64,000 nt of DNA from Alphaproteobacteria bacterium (GTDB lineage Bacteria; Pseudomonadota; Alphaproteobacteria; MPNO01), in contig OZ219866.1 of NCBI GenBank assembly GCA_964291675.2, positions 736,001 through 800,000 of the forward strand, in the 5' to 3' direction. The notes below the pieces were generated by a model. That model was given only the letters and a program-made list of their open reading frames with translations. It made no database searches and was not told the origin of the DNA. A program made the position numbers and the translations under genes. Shown here piece after piece: positions 29,772-59,689 of the stretch (position 1 is its first letter; each line of letters begins with the position of its first letter).

Positions 29772-31546
29772 CGCGTCTCTCCCTCCGCGCTCGCCAGCGT
29801 CGCCATCGCCGCGCGCACCCGCTCGGTCGCCGCCGCGTCGAGCCGCATCGTGGCGGGGTCGATGACCACGCCGTAGAGGGCGCGCGCCGAGGCGAGCGAG
29901 ACATAGCCCTGGCGCACATCGTCCAGCACCGTCCCCGCCGGGCGTTCGAGCGGCGAGCCGAACCCGCCGCCGCCGCCCGAGTTCACGATGAAGGCATCGC
30001 CCGTCTCGATCCGTTTCCAGAACAGCTTGGCGTTGGGGAATTCCGGCCCGGCCTCGCCGTTCACCCGGAGCCCGACGCGGTTGCCGCGCCCGGCGCGTCC
30101 GCCCTCCAGCCCCCAGGGCTCGCAGTTGGCGCGATCGGCCTGGCTGTTGAAGTTGAGCGGCGAGCGCGCCTGCACCACGTATTCGATGCCGAGCCCGCCG
30201 CGATGGCGCCCCGCCCCGCCGGAATCGGGGATCAGCGCGTGACGCTCGATGACGATCGGGTAGTTGACTTCCATCAGCTCGGAGGGGCTGTTGTGGGTGT
30301 CGCCGTCGTTGAGGCAGACGGTGGCCGGCATGCCGTCCTCGTTGTGCTTGGCGCCCCAGCCGCCGCCGGTCGGCCCGATGGCACCGATGAACAGCGTGTT
30401 GGCGCGCGGGTCGATGCCGTTCATCCGCCCCATCACCAGATCGGCGTGGTGGCCGGCGGCGACGCGCTCGGGGATGGCCGGCGCGAGCGCCTTGAACACC
30501 GCGTCCACGATGGTCATCGGGAAGGTCATCCAGCTCCGCATCGCGGCCGGGCGCTCGGCGCTGACGATCCGCCCCGGCGGGATCACCGTCTTCAGCGGGC
30601 GGAAGCTGCCGTCGTTGATCGGGTAGTCGACAGGCGAGGTGATGCACTTGAAGGCGACCTGGGAGCAGGCATAGGCGGTGGTGATGCCCGAGTTGTAGAA
30701 CCCCTTCACCTGGCGCGAGACGTCGCTCAGGTCGATGGTCATCTCCTCGCCCGCGACGGTGACGCGGACGACGATCGGGACCTCCTTGCCGATGTCGATC
30801 CCGTCGTCGTCCATGAACGCCTCGGCCTCGTACACCCCGTCGGGGATCGAGCGCGTGCGTTCGCGCGCCGCCCGCTCCGACCGGTCCATGATGCGGCCGA
30901 GCGCGCCCAGTACCGCGCCCCTGCCGTAGCGCTCGATCAGGGCGAGAAAGCCGCGCTCGCCGGTGCGTACCGCGGTGAGCTGGGCGCGGAGGTCGCCGAG
31001 CGCGCGCTCCGGCATGCGGACGTTCATTGCGATGATGTCGACTAGGTCGCGGTTGAGCTCGCCCGCGCGCTGCAGCTTGAGGATCGGGACCTGCAACCCC
31101 TCGGCGTAGATGTCGGTGGTGATGCCCTGCAGCGTGCCGCCGATATCGAGCCAATGCGCCATGCAGCAGGAGAACCCGACGAGTGCGCCCTCGTGGTAGA
31201 CCGGCAGGCTCAGGGTGATGTGGTTGAGGTGGCTGCCGGTGACGTAGGCGTCGTTGGTGACCAGGATGTCGCCGGGCTCGATCCCGTCGACCCCGAAATG
31301 TTCCAGCTTGGCCTTCAGCGTCTCGGCCATGCCGCGGATGAACATCGGCAGGCCGAGCCCGATGGAGACCGTCTCGCCCTCGGCGGTGAACAGCCCGACG
31401 GTGAAGTCGAGCGCCTCGTAGATGATCATGTTGTAGGCGGTGCGCATGAGGTTGGTCTTCATCTCCTCGGTCACCGCCATGACCCCGTTGCGGACCAGCT
31501 CGGTGGTCACCGGGTCGGCCCGGATATCTGCGCCGTTCTCCGCCAT
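29768..31546 (-). CDS. Hydantoinase B/oxoprolinase family protein
   Basis: DPVTTELVRN..EEM..LMRTAY, PGDILVTNDAY..GSHLNH, AHWLDIGG, DSGGAGRHRGG and SGGGGGFG. Confidence 0.92.
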   Translation of the reverse strand: MAENGADIRADPVTTELVRNGVMAVTEEMKTNLMRTAYNMIIYEALDFTVGLFTAEGETVSIGLGLPMFIRGMAETLKAKLEHFGVDGIEPGDILVTNDAYVTGSHLNHITLSLPVYHEGALVGFSCCMAHWLDIGGTLQGITTDIYAEGLQVPILKLQRAGELNRDLVDIIAMNVRMPERALGDLRAQLTAVRTGERGFLALIERYGRGAVLGALGRIMDRSERAARERTRSIPDGVYEAEAFMDDDGIDIGKEVPIVVRVTVAGEEMTIDLSDVSRQVKGFYNSGITTAYACSQVAFKCITSPVDYPINDGSFRPLKTVIPPGRIVSAERPAAMRSWMTFPMTIVDAVFKALAPAIPERVAAGHHADLVMGRMNGIDPRANTLFIGAIGPTGGGWGAKHNEDGMPATVCLNDGDTHNSPSELMEVNYPIVIERHALIPDSGGAGRHRGGLGIEYVVQARSPLNFNSQADRANCEPWGLEGGRAGRGNRVGLRVNGEAGPEFPNAKLFWKRIETGDAFIVNSGGGGGFGSPLERPAGTVLDDVRQGYVSLASARALYGVVIDPATMRLDAAATERVRAAMATLASAEGETR

Positions 31547-31552
31547 GCCGCG

Positions 31553-31581
31553 ACAATAGCCCGCGTTGCCCAGCCCCTCAA
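31553..31581 (-). promoter_or_regulatory. Sigma70 promoter of hyuB-like gene (leaderless)
   Basis: TTGAGG-N17-TATTGT ends 6 nt before ATG 31546. Confidence 0.5.
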
Positions 31582-31646
31582 TTTCCCGCCAGCCCGGCCT
31601 CGAACCGCATGGTCCCCGCTCCCGCCCGCTGCGGACCGCCTCCCGG

Positions 31647-31690
31647 TTGCGAGTCTCCCGCCACGTCGATATATATCATTGATAGATAAC
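31647..31690 (+). promoter_or_regulatory. vapBC promoter/operator
   Basis: TTGCGA-N17-TATATA overlapped by imperfect inverted repeat ATATATC-ATT-GATAGAT. Confidence 0.55.
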
Positions 31691-31709
31691 GACACGGAGG
31701 GCGCCGGCA

Positions 31710-31961
31710 ATGACCAAGACCGCCAAGCTGTTCTGGAACGGGAGATCCCAGGCCGTGCGGCTCCCCAAGGAATTCCGCATGCCGGGCAAGGAGGTCCGGA
31801 TCCGCCGCCAGGGCGCGGCGGTCGTGCTCGAGCCGATCTCGGACGGCTGGGAGTGGCTCGATGAAATCCAGGGCAAGTTCTCCGACGATTTCTTCGCCGA
31901 AGGCCGCAACCAGCCACCGATGCCGCCGCCGCGGCCCGGCCTCGACGACGCCTTCGAATGA
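31710..31961 (+). CDS. vapB: VapB antitoxin (AbrB/SpoVT fold)
   Basis: TAKLFWNGRSQAVRLPKEFR signature. Confidence 0.93.
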   Translation: MTKTAKLFWNGRSQAVRLPKEFRMPGKEVRIRRQGAAVVLEPISDGWEWLDEIQGKFSDDFFAEGRNQPPMPPPRPGLDDAFE

Positions 31962-32371
31962 TGCGCTACCTGCTGGACACCAATGCCTGCGTCGCGCTCC
32001 TCAACGCCAGCTCACGCAGCCTGTCCGCGCGGGCGCGGCGCCACGGTGCGGAACAGATCGGGCTCCCCGCCCCGGTGGCGTTCGAGCTCTACTACGGCGC
32101 CTTCAAGAGCCGCGAGGGGAGCCGGAACCTCGGCCATCTCGACCGGATGGCGTTCGAGATCGTCCCCTTCGACGCGGCCGACGCGCGCGCGGCCGGCGTG
32201 ATCCGCCGCGATCTCGAGGCCAGCGGGATGCCGATCGGCCCCTATGACGTGCTGATCGCCGGCCAGGCCCGGGCGCGGAATTTGGTGCTGGTCACCGCCA
32301 ATACGCGCGAATTCGAGCGGGTGGACGGGTTGAAGCTCGAGGATTGGTCGACTCCCATGCCGGATGGTTGA
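31958..32371 (+). CDS. vapC: VapC PIN-domain toxin
   Basis: YLLDTNAC, ELYYGA, IGPYDVLIAGQA and LVTANTREFERVDGL. Confidence 0.93.
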   Translation: MMRYLLDTNACVALLNASSRSLSARARRHGAEQIGLPAPVAFELYYGAFKSREGSRNLGHLDRMAFEIVPFDAADARAAGVIRRDLEASGMPIGPYDVLIAGQARARNLVLVTANTREFERVDGLKLEDWSTPMPDG

Positions 32372-32417
32372 TCGGCCGTACCCCCGGTCAATTCGACGGG
32401 GGGCGCCAACTTGCCGG

Positions 32418-32446
32418 TTGGCCGGGAGGGGGCGAGCGGCGATAAT
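32418..32446 (+). promoter_or_regulatory. Sigma70 promoter of the selenoprotein operon
   Basis: TTGGCC-N17-GATAAT; GAGGA SD before ATG 32473. Confidence 0.5.
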
Positions 32447-32472
32447 CCGGGCGCCCACACGAGGATCGCGCC

Positions 32473-33117
32473 ATGCCCAATATCCGCATGCTCGACATCG
32501 ACGAGCTCAAGGCGGGCAAGCTCCGCCCGCTGGTCAACAAGGCGCTGCGCCACCGCGCGCCCGACCCCGCCTTCCACGCCATGCTGGGCCACAGCCCGGA
32601 CGTCGCGCGCACGATGTATCTCGCCTGGGGCGCGGTGTTCAACACCGGGCGGATCGACCACAAGCTCAAGGAAATCATCCGCGTCCAGCTCTCGCGGATG
32701 GCCGCGTGCCGCTATTGAGGCAATGTCAGGTCTGCTTCGGCGAAGCAGCAGGGACTGACGGAAGAGACCATCGACGAGGGCATCGAATCCCATGCGTCAA
32801 GCGACCGCTTCACCCCGGCCGAGAAGGTCGCGCTGCGCTACTCCGAGCTGATGGGGAGCGCGCCGGACAGGGTCGATGCCGCCCTCTACGCGGCGCTCGC
32901 GGAGCACTATTCGGTCGAGGAGATCGTCGAGCTCGGCGCCTTCGTCGGCTTCAACGTCGGCTACCACACCTTCTTCGGGACGCTCGACTTCTACCCGATG
33001 TTCACCCCCGACGGTCGGCTTGTCGACCAGGCGGAGTCGCGGCGGATCTACGGCGAGACCCCGGTCTCGCTCAACCGGGGAGCGCTCGCGCGCGCCACCG
33101 GGGAAGCCGCCGAATGA
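32473..33117 (+). CDS. AhpD/carboxymuconolactone-decarboxylase-like selenoprotein, CxxU (Sec at TGA 32716-32718), 214 aa
   Basis: ORFs 32473..32718 and 32851..33117 are in one frame joined through a single TGA: ..KEIIRVQLSRMAAC-R-Y-(TGA)-GNVRSASAKQQGLTEE..; aligns without gaps to the downstream paralog across the TGA; SECIS-like hairpin follows. Confidence 0.88.
32716..32760 (+). promoter_or_regulatory. Bacterial SECIS-like stem-loop
   Basis: Inner stem CTGCTTC(32732-38)/GAAGCAG(32742-48) with G-initial loop GGC; outer stem GTCAG(32725-29)/CTGAC(32755-59); apical loop starts 21 nt after UGA. Confidence 0.75.
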
Positions 33118-33662
33118 GCCTCCGCGGCACGCTCCCGCCGGTGCCTCGCGCGGCGATCGACGACCCGAAGCTCCAGGCGCTGATCGCGCGCTCGGAAGAG
33201 ACCGGCATCGCGGACTCGCGGTTCGTCCGGCTGCTCGCGCATGTGCCGGGCTATGCCGAGGCGCTGCACGACGCGCTCGACCGCTCGCTGATGGAAGGCG
33301 CGGTCGATCACAAGCTCAAGGAGATCGTCCGCGTCCAGCTCGCCCGGCTCGCCGGCGATCCCTACTTTTCCGCCTTCCGCTCGAAGCGGGCGCTGGAGGA
33401 CGGGCTAACCGAGGAGCGGATCGAGGCGGGGAGCGGCGATTTCGAGACTGACGCGCGCTTCACCCCCGCCGAAAAATGGGCGCTCCGCTACGGCTGGCTG
33501 ATGTACCGGGAGCCCGGGAAGGTCGACAAGGCGTTCTACGACGAGGGCAAAGCGCACTACTCCGAAGCCCAGATCGTCGAGCTCGGCGCCTTCATCGCCT
33601 TCCACTACGGCATGCAGATCTTTCTCGGCACCCTGGACCTGCCCGAAGAAGAAGGTGGCTGA
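33114..33662 (+). CDS. AhpD/CMD-like paralog lacking redox Cys/Sec
   Basis: DHKLKEIVRVQLARLAGDPYF..GLTEERIE..RFTPAEKWALRY..HYSEAQIVELGAF mirrors the upstream gene; CRYU replaced by DPYF; ATGA overlap. Confidence 0.85.
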   Translation: MSLRGTLPPVPRAAIDDPKLQALIARSEETGIADSRFVRLLAHVPGYAEALHDALDRSLMEGAVDHKLKEIVRVQLARLAGDPYFSAFRSKRALEDGLTEERIEAGSGDFETDARFTPAEKWALRYGWLMYREPGKVDKAFYDEGKAHYSEAQIVELGAFIAFHYGMQIFLGTLDLPEEEGG

Positions 33663-35964
33663 GACGCGGGTCGAGGATCCGCCGCTGCTGCGCGGGCGGG
33701 CCCGCTTCGTCGACGACATCCATCTGCCCAAAACCCTGCACGCGGCGTTCCTGCGCAGCCCGCTTGCGCATGCCGGGATTGCGGGCATCGACAAGAGCGC
33801 GGCCGAGGCGGCGCCTTGCGTGCACGCGGTGTGGACGCTCGACGATCTCCGCCCCCATCTCGCCGCCCACCGCCTCGTCGTCGGCCTGCCGAGCCCGTCC
33901 TACCGCCAGCACCGCGACCGGCCGCTGCTCGCCGACGGCGAGGTCGTCCATGTCGGCGAGGCGGTGGCGATGGTCGTTTCCGCCTCGCGCTACGCGGCCG
34001 AGGACGCGGCGACGCTGGTCGATGTCGCCTACGAGCCGCTCCCCGCCGTCGCCGACTGCCGCGACGCGCTGGCGCCGGAGGCGCCGCCCGTCCATCGCGG
34101 CGCCGACCACAACCTGCTCGCCGAGCTCGCCATGGAATTCGGCGACGTCGAGGCGGCGTTTGTCCGCGCGCACCGCATCTTCGCCCTGAATCTCTCCGTC
34201 CATCGCGGCGGCGGCCACTCGATCGAGGGGCGCGGCGCGCTCGCCCGCCACGACCCGGTCGACGACCTTCTGACGCTGTGGAGCTCGACCCAGACGCCGC
34301 ATGCCGGGCGCGACGCGATCGCCCGCATGCTGGGCCGCGGGACCCGCCGCGTCCGCGTCGTCACCCCGGCGGTCGGCGGCGGGTTCGGCCCCAAGCTCGT
34401 GACCTACCCGGAAGAGGTCGCCGTCGCGCTCGCATCCGTGCTGCTCGACCGGCCGGTCAAGTGGATCGAGGACCGGCGCGAGCACTTCGTCGCCAGCACC
34501 CAGGAGCGCGACCAGCACTGGGACATCGAGGCCGCGTTCGACACCGGGGGCCGCATCCTCGGGGTCCGCGGGACCATGCTGCACGATCACGGCGCCTATA
34601 CCGCGCGCGGCGCCAATCTGCCCTACGAGTCGGCGCTTACCGTGACGCTGCCCTACGACGTGCCGGCCTACCGGCTCACGGCCCGGGCGGCGCTCACCAA
34701 CAAGGTGCCGGTCACCCCGGTCCGGGGCGCCGGTCACCCGCAGGCGGTGTTCGCCATGGAACGCCTGCTGGATGCGGCGGCGGACGGGCTCGGCATCGGC
34801 CGCGCGGCGATCCGCGAACGCAACCTGATCGGCCCCGAACGCATGCCCTGCACCCGCCCGCTGGAGACCCGGGGCGGGCGCAAGGTGGTGCTCGACTCGG
34901 GCGACTATCCGGGCTGCATGAAGGCGGCGCTCGATGCCGCGGACTGGGACGGTTTTGCCGCCCGGCGCAAGGCGGCGAAGATGCTCGGGCTCGCGCGCGG
35001 CATCGGGCTTGCCAATTTCGTCAAGGGAACCGGGCGCGGGCCGTTCGAATCGGCCGCCGTCGCCATCGACCCGGCGGGCACGGTGTCGGTCGCTTCCGGC
35101 GCCGCCGCGATGGGCCAGGGGATCGAGACCATGCTCGCCGGCATCGTCGCCGAGACGCTCGGCTGCGACCGCGATCTGGTCAGGGTCACGGCGGGGGATA
35201 CAGGCGCGATCGCGCTCGGCATTGGCGGGTTCAACAGCCGCCAGGCGGTGACCGCGGGGAGCTCGGCCTTCAACGCAGCGCGCCGGGTACGCGACAAGGC
35301 GCTCGCCGTCGCCGCGCATCTCCTGGAGGCGGCGCAGGAGGATCTCGAAATGGCGGGCGGCGAGGTCCGGGTGCGTGGCGCGCCCGATCTCAGCGTCCCA
35401 CTCGGCCGGCTCGCCGAGACCGTGGGGGGCACGCCGGGGGTGACGCTGCCGGCGGGGATCGCGCCCGGGCTCGCGGCGGACGAATACACCGTGCTCGACG
35501 ACATGCCGTTCGCCAATGGCAGCGCGGTCGCGGAGGTGCAGATCGATCGCGAGACCGGGCACGCCGCCATCCATCGGCTCACGGTCGCGCACGATTGCGG
35601 GCGCATCGTGAACCGGGCGATCGTCGAAGGCCAGATCGTGGGCGGCGCGGCGCACGCCGTCGGCAACGCGCTCTATGAGTGGATGGGGTTCGACGACGAC
35701 GCCCAGCCGCTCACCGTGACGCTCGCCGACTACCTGCTGCCGGGTTCGACCGACGTGCCGAGGGTCGCTACGGTGCACATGGAATCGCCGAGCCCGCTCA
35801 ACCCGATCGGGGTCAAGGGGGTCGGCGAATGCGGCACCGTCCCCACCGCCGCCGCCATCGCCGCCGCGATCGAGGATGCGCTCGGCCTGCCCGGCGGCAC
35901 CGTGCAGCGCGTGCCGCTCGCCCCCGCCGACATCGGGAGGCTTGCCCGTGACCATACGCTTTGA
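33655..35964 (+). CDS. Xanthine dehydrogenase/CoxL-family molybdopterin-binding subunit
   Basis: RVEDPPLLRGRARFVDD, VGGGFGPK, PVRGAGHPQ, MGQG, GQIVGG and KGVGE; lacks the form I CODH AYxCSFR motif. Confidence 0.93.
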   Translation: MAETRVEDPPLLRGRARFVDDIHLPKTLHAAFLRSPLAHAGIAGIDKSAAEAAPCVHAVWTLDDLRPHLAAHRLVVGLPSPSYRQHRDRPLLADGEVVHVGEAVAMVVSASRYAAEDAATLVDVAYEPLPAVADCRDALAPEAPPVHRGADHNLLAELAMEFGDVEAAFVRAHRIFALNLSVHRGGGHSIEGRGALARHDPVDDLLTLWSSTQTPHAGRDAIARMLGRGTRRVRVVTPAVGGGFGPKLVTYPEEVAVALASVLLDRPVKWIEDRREHFVASTQERDQHWDIEAAFDTGGRILGVRGTMLHDHGAYTARGANLPYESALTVTLPYDVPAYRLTARAALTNKVPVTPVRGAGHPQAVFAMERLLDAAADGLGIGRAAIRERNLIGPERMPCTRPLETRGGRKVVLDSGDYPGCMKAALDAADWDGFAARRKAAKMLGLARGIGLANFVKGTGRGPFESAAVAIDPAGTVSVASGAAAMGQGIETMLAGIVAETLGCDRDLVRVTAGDTGAIALGIGGFNSRQAVTAGSSAFNAARRVRDKALAVAAHLLEAAQEDLEMAGGEVRVRGAPDLSVPLGRLAETVGGTPGVTLPAGIAPGLAADEYTVLDDMPFANGSAVAEVQIDRETGHAAIHRLTVAHDCGRIVNRAIVEGQIVGGAAHAVGNALYEWMGFDDDAQPLTVTLADYLLPGSTDVPRVATVHMESPSPLNPIGVKGVGECGTVPTAAAIAAAIEDALGLPGGTVQRVPLAPADIGRLARDHTL

Positions 35965-36835
35965 GGAGATCGGCGAGCGGCTGCGCGCCTTCCGGCTCGG
36001 CTCGGGGCTGAGCGCCGACGAGATCGCCGCCCGCATCGGCATCTCGCGCACCGCGCTCTACCGCTTCGAGAAAGGCCGGGTGGCGAAGATCGACGCGCTG
36101 GAAAAGCTCGCCGAGCTGCTCGACGTGTCGCTCCCGACCCTGCTCGGCGTCGGCGTCGAATATGTCGGCTCGGCGGTCAGCTTCTTCGAGCGGCTGCGCC
36201 AGATCGAGGCGACGGCGGAACACATCGTCGTGCTGGCGGGCCCGGTCTCCTTCCTGCTGTCGAGCGACGACTTCGTCGACACGCTGGAAGACGTGCTCGG
36301 CGAGAGCATCCCGGATGGCGGCGACGGGCGCGCCCGCGGCCTCGACCAGCTGGGCGAGCTGATGTCCATCCTGCGCCGGCGCAAGGAGACCTATCGCGAG
36401 CGCCGCCCGGGCGTGCTCAACCTGATCTCCGAGGCGGAGATGGGGCGGTTCCTGAGGAATGGCCTGGTCGGCCGCCTCGACCTGCCATCCGCCGTTCGCG
36501 ACGAGCGGCTTGCGCTCGCGCGCCGCGAGGCGCTGCATCTGGTGCGGCTGATGGAGGACGAGCCGATCGGCGTCCAGATCGGCCTCGTCCCCTCGACCCT
36601 GCCGCCGACCAGCTTCCAGATCTTCCGCCAGCCCGGCCGCAGGGTGCTGACGCTGAGCCCGTTCCGCCTCGGCGAGCAGCCCAACATCCACGCCGGGGTG
36701 GCGATGATCACCTCGGCACCCGAGGCGCTGGCGCTGCACGAGAAGACGGCGGAAGATTTGTGGCGCCGTGCCCGCAAGGGCCCGCGGGCGGCCGCCGCCA
36801 TGCGCGACCTGATCTCCCGCCACGCCCCGGGCTGA
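35948..36835 (+). CDS. XRE-family transcriptional regulator with long C-terminal domain
   Basis: IGERLRAFRLGSGLSADEIAARIGISRTALYRFEKG HTH; GTG start after GGGAGG overlapping the end of the Mo-subunit gene. Confidence 0.85.
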   Translation: MTIRFEEIGERLRAFRLGSGLSADEIAARIGISRTALYRFEKGRVAKIDALEKLAELLDVSLPTLLGVGVEYVGSAVSFFERLRQIEATAEHIVVLAGPVSFLLSSDDFVDTLEDVLGESIPDGGDGRARGLDQLGELMSILRRRKETYRERRPGVLNLISEAEMGRFLRNGLVGRLDLPSAVRDERLALARREALHLVRLMEDEPIGVQIGLVPSTLPPTSFQIFRQPGRRVLTLSPFRLGEQPNIHAGVAMITSAPEALALHEKTAEDLWRRARKGPRAAAAMRDLISRHAPG

Positions 36836-36851
36836 GGCGGGGCGCGAGTCT

Positions 36852-38162
36852 TCAAAAGCTGTAGACGAGGCTCCCGCCGATAAAGCTGTCGCGCCGCGTG
36901 TCGTGGATGGGGTCGTCGGGGTCGACGGCAAGAAAGACGGTGCCGTCGACCTTGGCGTCCCAGCTGTCCGAGAGGTTGCGCTTGACCTCGAATCCGAGCG
37001 CGTAGGTCTGGTAATCGGCATCGGCGATCAGGCTGGCCACGAGCTGGGTGCCCTCGACGTCGTTGAGGGCGAGGCGGCCGGCGACGAAGATCTCGTTCTG
37101 GAACTGGTCGGGCGAACGGCGCCCGCGCTCGTCGTAGCTCCACTCGGCGAGCACGCTGATATCGGCGTTCGACTCGAATACCCCGCCGAAGGTGTATTCG
37201 AAGCCGGCAACGAAGGCCCGGTAGTCGCGTCCTTTGCCCAACAGGTCGGCCGGAGGATCGGGCAGGGCCGGTGCGCCCTCGCGGTGGATGGCCTCCAGCT
37301 TCAACAGCCACGACTCCAGGGTGAGCTGGGCGTCGAGCCCGAACTGGCGGATCTGCGCGTAGTGCGGCACCAGGCGGTGCGGCACCGGGACGAAGCCGCC
37401 CATCCCGTCCGGCGCGATCCGGAAGGACGGGCGCAGCGACGGTTCGCGGGCGGTGCCGTCGAACAGGCTGAGCCCGAGATCGAGCGGCCCGAAGCTCCGG
37501 CTGAAGCGCGCGGCGAGGTCGACATGCCATTCCTCGGCCGCGCTCTCATAGGTCACCCGGCGCTCGTCCACCGTGAGTCCGCCGCGCAGCCGCCCGCCGG
37601 GCCCGGGCAGGGTGCGCTCGCGGTGCAGCGGCAGCACGAAGAACTCCAGCGTCCCCCACCCCGCCGTCCAGGTCAGATGGGCCATGAGCTGGCCCAGCGC
37701 GATCTCCTCGTTGGGGTGCTCGACCAGGTCGGCCTGGTTGACGATGTTGACCAGATGGTGGAATTCGGTCACCCCCCAGAACACCCGGTCGAAGCCGAGC
37801 CGTGCCTCCCACTCGCCCTCGCCGAGCTCGCCGAAGGCCAGCAGATAGGCCTCGCGCAAATCGGCGTGGGTGCGGTAGGCATCGGCGCTGTCGTAGCGGT
37901 AGAACGGCGTCAGGATGAAGCTCGCCCCGCTCTCGTGGTCGAGATGGAGCGTCGACTGCGCCGTGTAGCCGAGCGTCGCGTCCCGCTGGCCGGGATGCGC
38001 GGCTTCCTCGGGGAACCAGCGCCCTTCGAGCGCAAGCCGTCCGGAGAGCGACATGGCGAGCCCACCGGTATCGGCGGCGGCGGCGGCGGCGAGGACCGCC
38101 CAGGCGACGCCGATGGCAGCGGCGGCGGCGCTGCGGCGGCGGGACCGGCGCGTCAGCGGCAT
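36852..38162 (-). CDS. Putative outer-membrane beta-barrel protein
   Basis: Signal peptide, DLREAY and alternating amphipathic strands, C-terminal LVYSF. Confidence 0.65.
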   Translation of the reverse strand: MPLTRRSRRRSAAAAAIGVAWAVLAAAAAADTGGLAMSLSGRLALEGRWFPEEAAHPGQRDATLGYTAQSTLHLDHESGASFILTPFYRYDSADAYRTHADLREAYLLAFGELGEGEWEARLGFDRVFWGVTEFHHLVNIVNQADLVEHPNEEIALGQLMAHLTWTAGWGTLEFFVLPLHRERTLPGPGGRLRGGLTVDERRVTYESAAEEWHVDLAARFSRSFGPLDLGLSLFDGTAREPSLRPSFRIAPDGMGGFVPVPHRLVPHYAQIRQFGLDAQLTLESWLLKLEAIHREGAPALPDPPADLLGKGRDYRAFVAGFEYTFGGVFESNADISVLAEWSYDERGRRSPDQFQNEIFVAGRLALNDVEGTQLVASLIADADYQTYALGFEVKRNLSDSWDAKVDGTVFLAVDPDDPIHDTRRDSFIGGSLVYSF

Positions 38163-56907: not shown

Positions 56908-57420
56908 TTGGCCGACAGGACCCCCTCTTCCCGAGCGGGCGCGCAGGCGCCGCATCGAGGGACGCCCGCCCTGCCCCGCGACCCCGTCGCCGGCATCCTG
57001 CTGGCGGCGTCGCTGCCGTTGCTGATCGCCGGGCTGGTCATGCCGGCGCTCTCGGTCACCCGCTTCGTGGTGTTCGGCGAGACCTGGTCGATCCTCGACG
57101 GCGTGCTCGCCTTCTGGTCCGACGGGCGCTACGCGCTGTTCGCGCTGGTCTTCCCGTTCTCGGTGGTGCTGCCCCTCGGCAAGGTGGCGATCGGCATCTG
57201 GGCCTGGCTGGCGGCGGCGCCCGGGGGATCGTTGCCCGGCCGGGCTGCGGGCGGCCGGGTCTCGCGCTGGTCGATGCTCGACGTCTGCATCGTGGCGCTA
57301 CTGGTCGTCGCCCTCGAAGGCAGCCTGCTGACCACCGCCGACATCCACGCCGGCCTGGTGGTGTTCGCCATCGGCATCGCCGTCTCGACCGTCGCGACCT
57401 ATCGCCTGGTGCAGCGCTAG
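56908..57420 (+). CDS. Paraquat-inducible protein A (PqiA) domain protein
   Basis: WSILDGV..FSVVLPLGK..SRWSMLDV motif; hydrophobic. Confidence 0.8.
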   Translation: MADRTPSSRAGAQAPHRGTPALPRDPVAGILLAASLPLLIAGLVMPALSVTRFVVFGETWSILDGVLAFWSDGRYALFALVFPFSVVLPLGKVAIGIWAWLAAAPGGSLPGRAAGGRVSRWSMLDVCIVALLVVALEGSLLTTADIHAGLVVFAIGIAVSTVATYRLVQR

Positions 57421-59631
57421 CCCGGCCGGGGAGATCGGAACCCGGGCCGACGCCGCCTGCCATCCCATGGCGCGGGCGACGGCGTTCCAGATCGCCGCGG
57501 GCGGCGCGATGGTCGCGCTCTCGCCGACGCCGCGGATGCCGAGCGGGTTGGTGGGAGACGGGGTGTCCTGCTCGACGAGGCACAGGACAGGCGCGCCGTC
57601 GGCGGCCGGCGCGAGATAGTCGGCCAGCGTCAGGGTGAGCGGCTGGCCGTCGGGCGCGAACCTCATCTCCGTCAGCAGCGCGTTGGCGATGCCCTCGACC
57701 GCCCCGCCCGCGACCTGGCCGCGGACGATCGCCGGGTTGAGCGCCCGGCCGATATCGTGGCCGACCGTATAGTCCAGGATCTCGACCGAGCCGGTCTCCG
57801 GATCGACCGCCACCCGCGCCGCATGCACCGAGAAGGCGAGCGTCGCCGGCTCGTCGGCGTGCCAGACGGTCGCCGCTTCGAGCCCCGACCCGCCGTCGAA
57901 CAGCGCCCCGCCCGGGGCGACGGCGCGCGCCGCATCGTCGATCCCGAGCCCGCTGTCGGTCCCGTCGCGCCGCAGGATGCGGCCGGCCGCGATGTCGAGC
58001 GCGGCGGGGTCGTCCTGCAGCAGCCGCGCGGCGATCGCCAGAATCCGCGCGCGCAACGCATTCGCCGCCTCGAAGACCGCGCTGCCCCCCATGATCGCAC
58101 CCCGGCTCGCGAACGCGCCGCGCCCGAAGGGGACAAGCGCCGTGTCGCCGAGCGCGACCGAGACCCTCCCGATATCCGCGCCCAGCGCCTCGGCCGCAAT
58201 CTGGGCGAAGCTCGTCGCCTGTCCCTGCCCCTGCGAGCTCATCCCCGAGGCCACGCGGATTTCGCCCGACGGGTCGATGCGGATGGAGGCCGACTCGAAG
58301 TTGACCACGCCCGAGACATCGACCCCGCCCGCCAGCCCCCAGGCCGTCCGCACCCCGCCGGGCCGCGCCTCGACCGCCTCGTCATATCCGCTTTGCGCCA
58401 GCACCCGGTCCAGAAGCGCGGGGAAGTCGCCGCCGCGAAAGGCGAAATCGGCGCCGCCGAACCCGGTTCCCGTCGCATGGGGCAGGTCGTCCGGGCGCAC
58501 CAGGTTGGCCCGCCTGAGCCGGGCCGCGTCGATGCCGAGCGCGCTTGCGGCGCGGTCGACCAGGGTCTCGATGGCGAGCGCGGCCTCGGGCTGGCCGGCG
58601 CCGCGATAGGTCGCCGCCGGCGTCTTGTTGGTGCCGACCGCCAGCACCTCGACCGAGAAATCGGGGATCCGGTAGGCGCCCGGGATCAGCGCGCCGCACA
58701 GCTCGCCCGTCGCGATACCGCTGGTAAACACGTAGGCCCCGACATCGAGCACCACCCGCGCGCGCAACGCCTCGAAGCGTCCGTCGGCGGCGAGGCCGAG
58801 CTCGAGCGCGACGTCGATGCCGCGCGAATGGGCGGTCGCCAGCATGTTCTCGCGCCGGTCCTCGATCCACTTGACCGGGCGGCCGAGCACGCGGCTCGCC
58901 TCGGCCAGCACGACCTCCTCGCCGTAGCAGCGCGACTTGGCGCCGAATCCGCCGCCCACGTCCTCGCAGACCACCCGGACGGCGCTTTCCGGGAGATCGA
59001 GCAGGGAGGCGAGGTTCTCGCGCACGTTGTAATGCGCCTGGGTGGAGAGCCGGACGGTCAGCCTGCCGCGCGCGCGGTCGAAATCGGCGACGGCGCCGCG
59101 GGTCTCGAGCGGCAGCGGGATCTGCCGCGCGAAGCGGCTCTCGTGGCCGACGCGCCGCGCCGCGCGGGCCAGCGCGCTTGCGGCATCGCCGCGCTCGTAA
59201 GAGAAGCGGGCGGCGACGTTGCCGGTCCAGGAGTCATGGAGCGCCGGTGCGCCCGCTTCCAGCGCCGCCGCGGTCCCGGCGACCGGGTCCAGCGGGCGGT
59301 AGTCGACCTCCACGAGGGCGGCGAGATCCTCCGCCCGGTAGGCGTCGTCGGCGACCACCAGCGCCACCGGCTCGCCGACATAGCGCACCCGCCCGGCTGC
59401 GAGGAAGGGCTGGGTCCCGCCGCGGATCGCCTTGTGCCAGTAGCGCACCACGAAGTCCCGGTCCGCGAAGGGGAGATCGGCGGCGGCGAGCACCAGCCGG
59501 GCGCCGGCCGCCAGCGCCGCCGAGGGATCGATGCCGGCGATCGCGGCGTGCGGGTGCGGGCTGCGGAGGAAGACCCCGTGCAGCATGCGGGGGAGGCCGA
59601 CATCGTCGACGAAGCGCGCCCGGCCGCGCAA
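57298..59631 (-). CDS. Second xanthine dehydrogenase/CoxL-family molybdopterin-binding subunit
   Basis: GRARFVDD, VGGGFGAK, TYRGAGQPE, QGQG, GQVAGG and RGVGE; TTG start with AAGGAGG 11 nt upstream. Confidence 0.9.
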   Translation of the reverse strand: MRGRARFVDDVGLPRMLHGVFLRSPHPHAAIAGIDPSAALAAGARLVLAAADLPFADRDFVVRYWHKAIRGGTQPFLAAGRVRYVGEPVALVVADDAYRAEDLAALVEVDYRPLDPVAGTAAALEAGAPALHDSWTGNVAARFSYERGDAASALARAARRVGHESRFARQIPLPLETRGAVADFDRARGRLTVRLSTQAHYNVRENLASLLDLPESAVRVVCEDVGGGFGAKSRCYGEEVVLAEASRVLGRPVKWIEDRRENMLATAHSRGIDVALELGLAADGRFEALRARVVLDVGAYVFTSGIATGELCGALIPGAYRIPDFSVEVLAVGTNKTPAATYRGAGQPEAALAIETLVDRAASALGIDAARLRRANLVRPDDLPHATGTGFGGADFAFRGGDFPALLDRVLAQSGYDEAVEARPGGVRTAWGLAGGVDVSGVVNFESASIRIDPSGEIRVASGMSSQGQGQATSFAQIAAEALGADIGRVSVALGDTALVPFGRGAFASRGAIMGGSAVFEAANALRARILAIAARLLQDDPAALDIAAGRILRRDGTDSGLGIDDAARAVAPGGALFDGGSGLEAATVWHADEPATLAFSVHAARVAVDPETGSVEILDYTVGHDIGRALNPAIVRGQVAGGAVEGIANALLTEMRFAPDGQPLTLTLADYLAPAADGAPVLCLVEQDTPSPTNPLGIRGVGESATIAPPAAIWNAVARAMGWQAASARVPISPAGLALHQAIGRDGRDGDADGEHHQAGVDVGGGQQAAFEGDDQ

Positions 59632-59689
59632 GAGCCGCGCGTCCTCCTTGCGCGCGACCGAGCGGCCGATCGCCGGGGAGGATGCGCCG

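Follow-up and report, generated by a model that had tools for sequence, protein, structure and literature searches.

Four overlapping genes were studied in the window, the whole 64,000-nucleotide stretch analysed here (G000:C2:736001-800000), which belongs to an alphaproteobacterial genome of 4.8 Mb (69% G+C, 93.7% complete) with Defluviicoccus sp. as its close relatives; parts of the stretch were matched in sponge metagenome runs. The genes code for an AhpD/CMD-type selenoprotein (CMD1), a paralog of it without selenocysteine (Sec) or cysteine (CMD2), the large subunit of a molybdenum (Mo) hydroxylase, and an XRE-family regulator. An initial annotation of this DNA had proposed them as a candidate new system in which CMD1 and CMD2 act for the Mo enzyme. 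What comparison with related genomes supports is a real operon that is conserved in one family, and not so much a new system as a composite of two separable modules of known kinds. The features of the locus are the following.

32405-32422, plus strand: inverted repeat GCCAAC-N6-GTTGGC, with 6-nt arms that are 100% complementary, overlapping the -35 hexamer; a candidate operator
32418-32446, plus strand: promoter-like site TTGGCC-N17-GATAAT (TTGGCC at 32418-32423, GATAAT at 32441-32446); a consensus match, not a mapped start
32473-33117, plus strand: CMD1, AhpD/CMD-type selenoprotein of 214 aa with the motif C79-R-Y-U82; PF02627, 44.2 bits (cut-off 23)
32716-32718, plus strand: UGA selenocysteine codon, TGA in 80/80 loci, aligned to the second Cys of CxxC
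32732-32748, plus strand: hairpin resembling a selenocysteine insertion sequence (SECIS), UCUGCUUC-GGC-GAAGCAG, with a 7-bp stem and a GGC loop, 13 nt past the UGA
33114-33662, plus strand: CMD2, paralog of 182 aa without Sec or Cys, with D82-P-Y-F85 in place of C-x-Y-U; PF02627, 26.6 bits
33655-35964, plus strand: Mo large subunit of 769 aa, xanthine oxidase/CoxL family; PF01315, PF02738 and PF20256; no adjoining iron-sulfur (Fe-S) or FAD genes
35948-36835, plus strand: XRE-family regulator of 295 aa; HTH_31 (48.9 bits) and HTH_3 (45 bits) at residues 7-63

The promoter sequence, the four genes and their overlapping junctions were found where the initial annotation had placed them. Selenoprotein, redox-dead paralog, Mo subunit and regulator all proved to be encoded by real genes under purifying selection, with ratios of nonsynonymous to synonymous substitution (dN/dS) of 0.09-0.33. 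CMD1 and CMD2 overlap by 4 nt (ATGA, at 33114), CMD2 and the Mo gene by 8 nt (at 33655), and the Mo and XRE genes by 17 nt (at 35948). In a comparison of the window with 12 relatives (n = 13), the 8-nt overlap was retained in 12 loci and the 17-nt overlap in 11, the remaining two having a 4-nt overlap; the 4-nt CMD1/CMD2 overlap with its start codon was present in six, the starts being unplaced in the rest. That the genes have one promoter holds to the extent that TTGGCC-N17-GATAAT was the only sigma-70-like match in the 5.8 kb from 31500 to 37300 (shuffled sequences gave 0.2). This site was near-invariant across 11 aligned loci of the same genus and unalignable in two other genera. The right arm of the inverted repeat was constant in the 11 same-genus loci, and its left arm differed in four. 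A scan of 31500-37500 against Rfam matched no family, apart from a chance miRNA-like match. One sponge RNA library contained contigs 88-98% identical to all four genes, which cross the UGA (32503-32786), the CMD2/Mo junction (33575-34022) and the Mo/XRE junction (35913-36205). These contigs give a weak hint that the operon genes are co-transcribed in a relative.

Conservation of the operon and separability of its modules

Loci related to CMD1 were collected from species-representative genomes, 80 being retained out of 272 matches. Within the order, 41 genomes were surveyed and an ortholog-level CMD1 carrying the TGA codon was present in 16 of them, namely all 12 genomes of the own genus (window included), the only genome of genus g4 and all three of genus g5. 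The four genes stood in a row in 12 of the 14 loci of relatives compared within the family. The initial annotation had named gene-neighbourhood analysis as a check on the proposed system. The four-gene order was indeed kept, in three genera that include Defluviicoccus, and only in this one alphaproteobacterial family: beyond it, neither a Mo subunit nor an XRE homolog stood behind the pair in any of the 66 loci that carry CMD1 and CMD2. A distant large subunit (30-35% identity), accompanied by CoxS- and CoxM-like genes, was present in four of these 66, on the opposite strand at a distance of 6-8 kb upstream.

Two relatives within the family have a disrupted block. In G008 a 2.3-kb insertion separates CMD2 from the Mo gene (L050, 10339-12349). 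This insertion is visibly AT-richer and holds two open reading frames of 365 and 379 aa, in which an HD-type motif and a nucleotidyltransferase-like motif, respectively one in each frame, were recognised by eye; possibly the insertion is a defence cassette or a mobile one. In G015 (L055, 10183-10381) the Mo gene has shrunk to a frameshifted remnant corresponding to residues 696-760, with CMD1, CMD2 and the XRE gene intact, so that this genome can be used for comparison as a natural knock-out of the Mo gene. The converse arrangement occurs in family f3, where G021 and G025 carry a large subunit (56-58% identity) followed by an XRE gene (64-71%) without the CMD pair; no genes for the small (S) or medium (M) subunit were present within 6 kb of these loci. 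The promoter regions of the f3 Mo/XRE loci are AT-rich and show no recognisable repeat in common with the window.

Since none of the 66 outside loci joins the pair to Mo and XRE genes, and these two occur without the pair in f3, the selenoprotein pair and the Mo subunit with its regulator are, as judged by gene order, two separable units. Along with the loss in G015 and the insertion in G008, this tells against one dedicated system built around the Mo enzyme, as it had been proposed.

Outside the family, the neighbours of the pair differ by lineage and include genes for FAA hydrolase, CoA-transferase III, class III aminotransferase, HMGL-like and SDR proteins. No neighbour was common to all 66 loci, the best clusters reaching at most 27 and following lineage. 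In 23 loci (L067, L070-L103, L110 and L121) from Nitrospinota, Tectomicrobia, Chloroflexota and other bacteria, CMD1 is closely preceded by the end of a class III aminotransferase gene of like orientation, about 1.4 kb upstream, and in 19 of them an ammonium transporter gene follows CMD2. In the window itself, a vapB-like/vapC-like pair with a 4-nt overlap, named by reading its sequence, lies directly upstream of the operon (31710-32371, plus strand); it was found in 8 of the 14 family loci and hence is outside the conserved block. Downstream of the operon there is a minus-strand gene (36852-38162) that occurs in the loci of some relatives only.

The selenoprotein CMD1 and its paralog CMD2

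CMD1 is a genuine AhpD/CMD-type CxxU selenoprotein, as follows from the conservation of its TGA codon, a conserved hairpin that includes a compensatory pair, and the presence of the Sec machinery. The TGA is the same codon in all 80 loci, which come from several phyla, and both halves of the protein are conserved in frame; the motif reads CNYU in 63 loci, CRYU in 11, CSYU in four, and CVYU and CTYU in one each. Four pairs of the hairpin stem were invariant in 51 of 51 distinct sequences, synonymous sites included; they fall in Ala, Ser, Ala and Lys codons, and neighbouring third positions vary freely. Pair 18-32 was U-A in 42 sequences and C-G in nine, and broken in none. Standard pairing was found in 92.2% of the hairpin cells, against 30-71% after sliding the partners. 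An RNA fold of the single sequence around the UGA was uninformative (z-score of -0.25 relative to shuffles). In the genome, selB, selA and tRNA-Sec lie together at C2:2837312-2841481, with selD elsewhere. At 775 aa, the open frame around the selD match (C2:1869115-1870017, plus strand) greatly exceeds the length of SelD alone and so may code for a fusion protein; PMC2398784 mentions Ndh-SelD fusions.

In the protein collection, most relatives of CMD1 are fragments of 117-151 aa that start after the TGA, as public gene callers annotate just this part in most entries. Such annotation would agree with the TGA being a true stop, with 32473-32718 and the downstream frame representing a broken gene or two small genes. 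Against this stand the 80 loci with the codon and both conserved halves, the hairpin conserved at the nucleotide level with its compensatory change, the complete Sec machinery and a dN/dS of 0.15-0.29 over the whole frame, which leave a true stop hardly credible. In five full-length database entries the Sec residue is given as W, which would result from a gene caller that took TGA as Trp. A second CMD/AhpD-like frame, 26% identical to CMD1, was noticed on the minus strand at G000:C2:1413501-1413974; it has one in-frame TGA within a C-P-F-U motif and TGA-containing counterparts in several relatives, and is probably another AhpD-like selenoprotein.

By default, AhpD chemistry is the thiol-based reduction of peroxide or peroxiredoxin. 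AhpD of Mycobacterium tuberculosis and PA0269 of Pseudomonas aeruginosa (PDB 2o4d, 2ijc) have the E-x11-C-x-x-C/U arrangement in common with CMD1. Six solved chains were matched by CMD1, the best being PA0269 (34 bits), from which it differs by Sec in place of the second Cys and by Arg in place of His after the motif (CRYUGNVR versus CAYCVNMH). CMD1 is also longer (214 aa) than AhpD and PA0269, and paired with an inactive paralog. Another of the six chains was the tetrabromopyrrole debrominase Bmp8 (PDB 6ohi), a CMD-family protein of 195 aa whose C-M-Y-C aligns to C-R-Y-U; similarity to it is weak (29 bits, E 8e-6, below PA0269), and Bmp8 has no Sec and another gene context. We know of no paralog partner of Bmp8.

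Selenoproteins of the AhpD/CMD type with a CxxU motif were first reported from Sargasso Sea and Global Ocean Sampling (GOS) metagenomes (Zhang, Fomenko, Gladyshev 2005; Zhang, Gladyshev 2008; PMC1088965, PMC2398784). Catalogues have included them since 2005, and in ocean metagenomes they belong to the most frequent selenoproteins (PMC1088965, PMC2398784, PMC9312934, PMC13188914); they are listed under COG2128/YciW, TIGR01926 and PF02627. CMD1 resembles them in its CMD fold, in the CxxU at the position of the AhpD CxxC, in the hairpin right after the UGA, in being abundant in marine bacteria and in being usually split in two by gene callers. Unlike them as described, it always has a D-x-Y-F paralog behind it, lacks a Cys ortholog and falls below the cut-off of TIGR01926 ("peroxidase-related enzyme"; 33.4 versus 81.8 bits), the model listed for the AhpD-like protein in PMC13188914. 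The cut-off of 310 for NF053654 (YciW-related (seleno)protein) was also missed, by CMD1 (62.6) and by CMD2 (35.4). Considering that CMD1 scored under both cut-offs, we treated it as a separate subfamily of the AhpD-like kind. No Cys-form ortholog was present among the 80 loci; the closest CxxC homologs are 31-35% identical and stand alone, unpaired. The literature on AhpD-like selenoproteins, in the portions available for this comparison (supplements not covered), contained no mention of a D-x-Y-F partner beside them.

CMD2 is 42-44% identical to CMD1. It lay directly downstream of CMD1 in 79 of the 80 loci, and in the 80th the contig ends 115 nt past CMD1. The lineages with the pair number at least seven (Rhodospirillales, Nitrospinota, Burkholderiales, Chloroflexota, Acidimicrobiia, Tectomicrobia and Hyphomicrobiales). 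In the 79 orthologs, D82, Y84, R89 and S90 are each at least 95% conserved, and dN/dS was 0.14-0.33, which indicates purifying selection. Nine of the 120 database matches listed measure 319-371 aa; in the four of these entries that were fetched, the portion of CMD1 behind the UGA is joined by a linker to a domain of the CMD2 type. Such fusions, present in some metagenome proteins, show that in some organisms CMD1 and CMD2 are one chain. Its conservation marks CMD2 as an obligate partner of CMD1 and not as debris. On the strength of the strict adjacency and the natural fusions, the two proteins most likely form a heteromer with one active and one inactive subunit.

The molybdenum hydroxylase large subunit and the XRE regulator

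The Mo subunit consists of a hammerhead domain and two domains that bind the Mo cofactor (MoCo), and 14 orthologs share its GGGFG and TQ motifs as well as its catalytic Glu, which lies in GVGECG. With these three Pfam domains, both motifs and the catalytic residue present, the protein looks functional. Its closest solved relatives are 6-hydroxypseudooxynicotine dehydrogenase (7dqx_A, 438 bits), CoxL of Mycobacterium (8uem_A) and quinoline 2-oxidoreductase (1t3q_B). The active-site loop PVRGAGHPQ is present at residues 355-363 and invariant across the 14 orthologs. Contrary to the initial annotation, this loop is not unusual: a paralog within a complete M-S-L operon has PVRGAGRPQ, and more distant paralogs follow an xRGAGxP pattern. 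Form I CoxL has a Cys-containing active-site loop, AYxCSFR. The studied protein scored far below the form I model (TIGR02416, 470 versus 991) and has VRGAGHPQ where CoxL of Mycobacterium has ...acsfr...; it was under all curated NCBIfam cut-offs, the best model being CODH_aero_grp5 (NF040766, 715.6 versus 950). It resembles the form II ("putative") CoxL and N-heterocycle hydroxylases in its three domains, MoCo motifs, catalytic Glu and xRGAGxPQ loop, and differs from them by the lack of adjoining Fe-S and FAD genes, by His for Arg in the loop and by orthologs seen in one family only.

As the initial annotation had noted, no Fe-S or FAD partner gene is nearby. The window contains no Fer2_2 or FAD_binding_5 gene, the nearest in the genome being about 168 kb off, and no S or M subunit gene was found within 9 kb at the 14 family loci. 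A census of the genome gave 45 large-subunit genes, against 16 with Fer2_2 and 14 with FAD_binding_5, and 27 of the 45 lack both S and M genes within a distance of 5 kb, and also a CMD pair. The lone Mo subunit is therefore not special, as most large subunits of this genome stand without a partner. The excess of 45 over 16 fits the expansion of coxL-type genes reported in sponge symbionts (PMC8941161). A literature search found no publication linking Defluviicoccus, CO dehydrogenase and sponge. The five nearest paralogs in the genome are 47-57% identical to the Mo subunit, and two of them are inside M-S-L operons, which makes borrowed partner subunits plausible. A second large-subunit gene is present in the window itself (57382-59652, minus strand); it is 40% identical to the studied one and likewise has no Fe-S or FAD genes in the window.

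A link to selenium-dependent Mo hydroxylases, which the initial annotation had raised, was not borne out. Haft and Self in 2008 are said to have described such enzymes as occurring with SelD, YqeB and YqeC. The likeness lies in selenium use and a xanthine-oxidase-family enzyme in one organism, whereas in this operon selenium enters as the coded Sec of a small protein distinct from the enzyme. YqeB (TIGR03309) gave no match in the genome, which is 93.7% complete; YqeC was not searched for. The two signatures of selenium-dependent Mo hydroxylases remained well under their cut-offs (TIGR03311, 252 versus 830; TIGR03313, 212 versus 1102). A maturation gene of the XdhC/CoxI type, one in number, is present elsewhere in the genome.

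The C-terminal domain of the XRE regulator (about 220 aa) has no Pfam match and no Atlas structure, only a weak DUF5753-like lead (0.86). Homologs in the protein collection numbered 3898 at E 1e-5, and the 120 matches listed were all at least 71% identical; at E 1e-60 a match was obtained in 8 of 401 alphaproteobacterial genomes, the window genome and one unpublished genome, used for no other result, included. Some homologs stand beside genes for Mo enzymes. In G310 a homolog 49% identical to the regulator lies in the minus-strand order CoxM-like, CoxS-like, XRE, large subunit (34%) (L143, 3792-8732), and in G012 a homolog is divergent from a CoxS-like gene. Others, 54-61% identical, lie in family f3 (L139, 7566-8742, minus strand; L142, 5712-6871, plus strand) behind two genes of about 190 aa that match N- and C-terminal thiamine pyrophosphate (TPP)-binding domains and look like a split TPP enzyme. 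The XRE family is thus not confined to genes for Mo enzymes.

Origin and possible function of the composite operon

In our assessment the four genes probably form one operon, in Defluviicoccus and two sister genera, that arose from two independent two-gene modules. CMD1 and CMD2 would constitute a widespread and self-contained selenoprotein unit. With its CxxU motif and a conserved Glu 12 residues upstream, CMD1 would cycle between the selenol/thiol and the selenenyl-sulfide form and thereby act as a reductant of peroxides, disulfides or electrophiles of a similar kind; CMD2, which has lost both redox residues and kept D-x-Y-F, would be its non-catalytic partner in the heteromer. The second module would comprise the Mo large subunit, one of many lone catalytic subunits, and the XRE protein as its dedicated regulator. 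The Mo subunit probably hydroxylates an N-heterocycle or a similar substrate, and most likely borrows its Fe-S and FAD subunits, for example from the M-S-L operon of a 53%-identical paralog (C1:388989-392656). The first module would have come to lie before the second under one promoter, both being probably co-regulated.

Several points weigh against this composite origin. Of 13 loci, 12 have the 8-nt overlap between CMD2 and the Mo gene, and the block has outlasted changes in its flanks; the two modules may therefore be kept together by selection on their function. We know of no xanthine-oxidase-family enzyme that works without Fe-S subunits, and the borrowing of such subunits, with FAD subunits, by this Mo subunit is a guess. 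The search for Mo-subunit orthologs in 300 other Alphaproteobacteria, which found none above the level of the in-genome paralogs (best 56%, in G021), scored just three candidates per genome. The RNA contigs are assemblies from one library with possible DNA content, and contigs that span two genes are no proof of one common transcript. On account of the conserved 8-nt coupling, a direct link between the selenoprotein and molybdenum retains a low probability.

In one form of such a link, the CxxU/D-x-Y-F pair would be a dedicated accessory of the Mo subunit, accepting its electrons in place of Fe-S and FAD subunits, reactivating its Mo=S ligand or donating selenium. Overlapping junctions conserved across three genera, S and M genes absent within 9 kb at the family loci and within about 168 kb in the window genome, and RNA contigs bridging CMD2 and the Mo gene all fit with this role. 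It is nonetheless unlikely, given a pair with no Mo subunit behind it in every locus outside the family, Mo and XRE genes without the pair in f3, a relative (G015) that lost the Mo gene and retained the rest, and another (G008) that tolerates 2.3 kb between the two modules. The unmatched YqeB marker, the XdhC/CoxI-type maturation gene elsewhere in the genome and the 27 large subunits that are equally partnerless and have no CMD pair point the same way. The prediction of a complex between the Mo subunit and CMD2 scored 0.00, which counts neither for nor against binding.

The pair might also be a Sec-dependent reductive dehalogenase, similar to Bmp8 and the Sec deiodinases, that turns halogenated N-heteroaromatics into substrates which the Mo subunit can hydroxylate. 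The debromination mechanism of Bmp8 parallels that of the deiodinases. The alignment of its C-M-Y-C to C-R-Y-U, the occurrence of the stretch in sponge metagenome runs, and the action of the nearest solved relatives of the Mo subunit (7dqx, 1t3q) on N-heterocycles are consistent with such a function. The Bmp8 match is weaker than that of PA0269, many pair loci come from open-ocean and groundwater genomes with unrelated neighbours, and neither a halogenase gene nor others for dehalogenation were seen next to the pair; we regard this function as highly unlikely. Nearly as doubtful is a broader version, in which Defluviicoccaceae recruited the heteromer as a working partner of a partnerless Mo hydroxylase. 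In it, the pair would either take two electrons from Mo(IV) through the selenenyl-sulfide, without Fe-S or FAD, or act as a Bmp8/deiodinase-type Sec dehalogenase whose product is then hydroxylated by the Mo subunit. What such recruitment would account for best is the 8-nt coupling kept across three genera; if true, an electron exit free of Fe-S and FAD would be one unknown in the xanthine oxidase family.

Taken as a composite of two modules, the operon is specific to one lineage and each of its modules belongs to a known kind. With its 45 large versus 16 small subunits, the genome strongly exemplifies the puzzling surplus of lone CoxL-type subunits in sponge symbionts, and the XRE regulator family recurs beside lone Mo subunits. 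The operon offers one concrete candidate for a partner of such a lone subunit, and the comparative evidence argues against an obligate link. In most public records, gene callers have split the CMD1-type selenoprotein. The new points on this type are the strict pairing with a D-x-Y-F paralog, the occasional fusion of the two and the absence of Cys forms, which make CMD1 and CMD2 a clean, testable pair of an active enzyme and a pseudo-enzyme.

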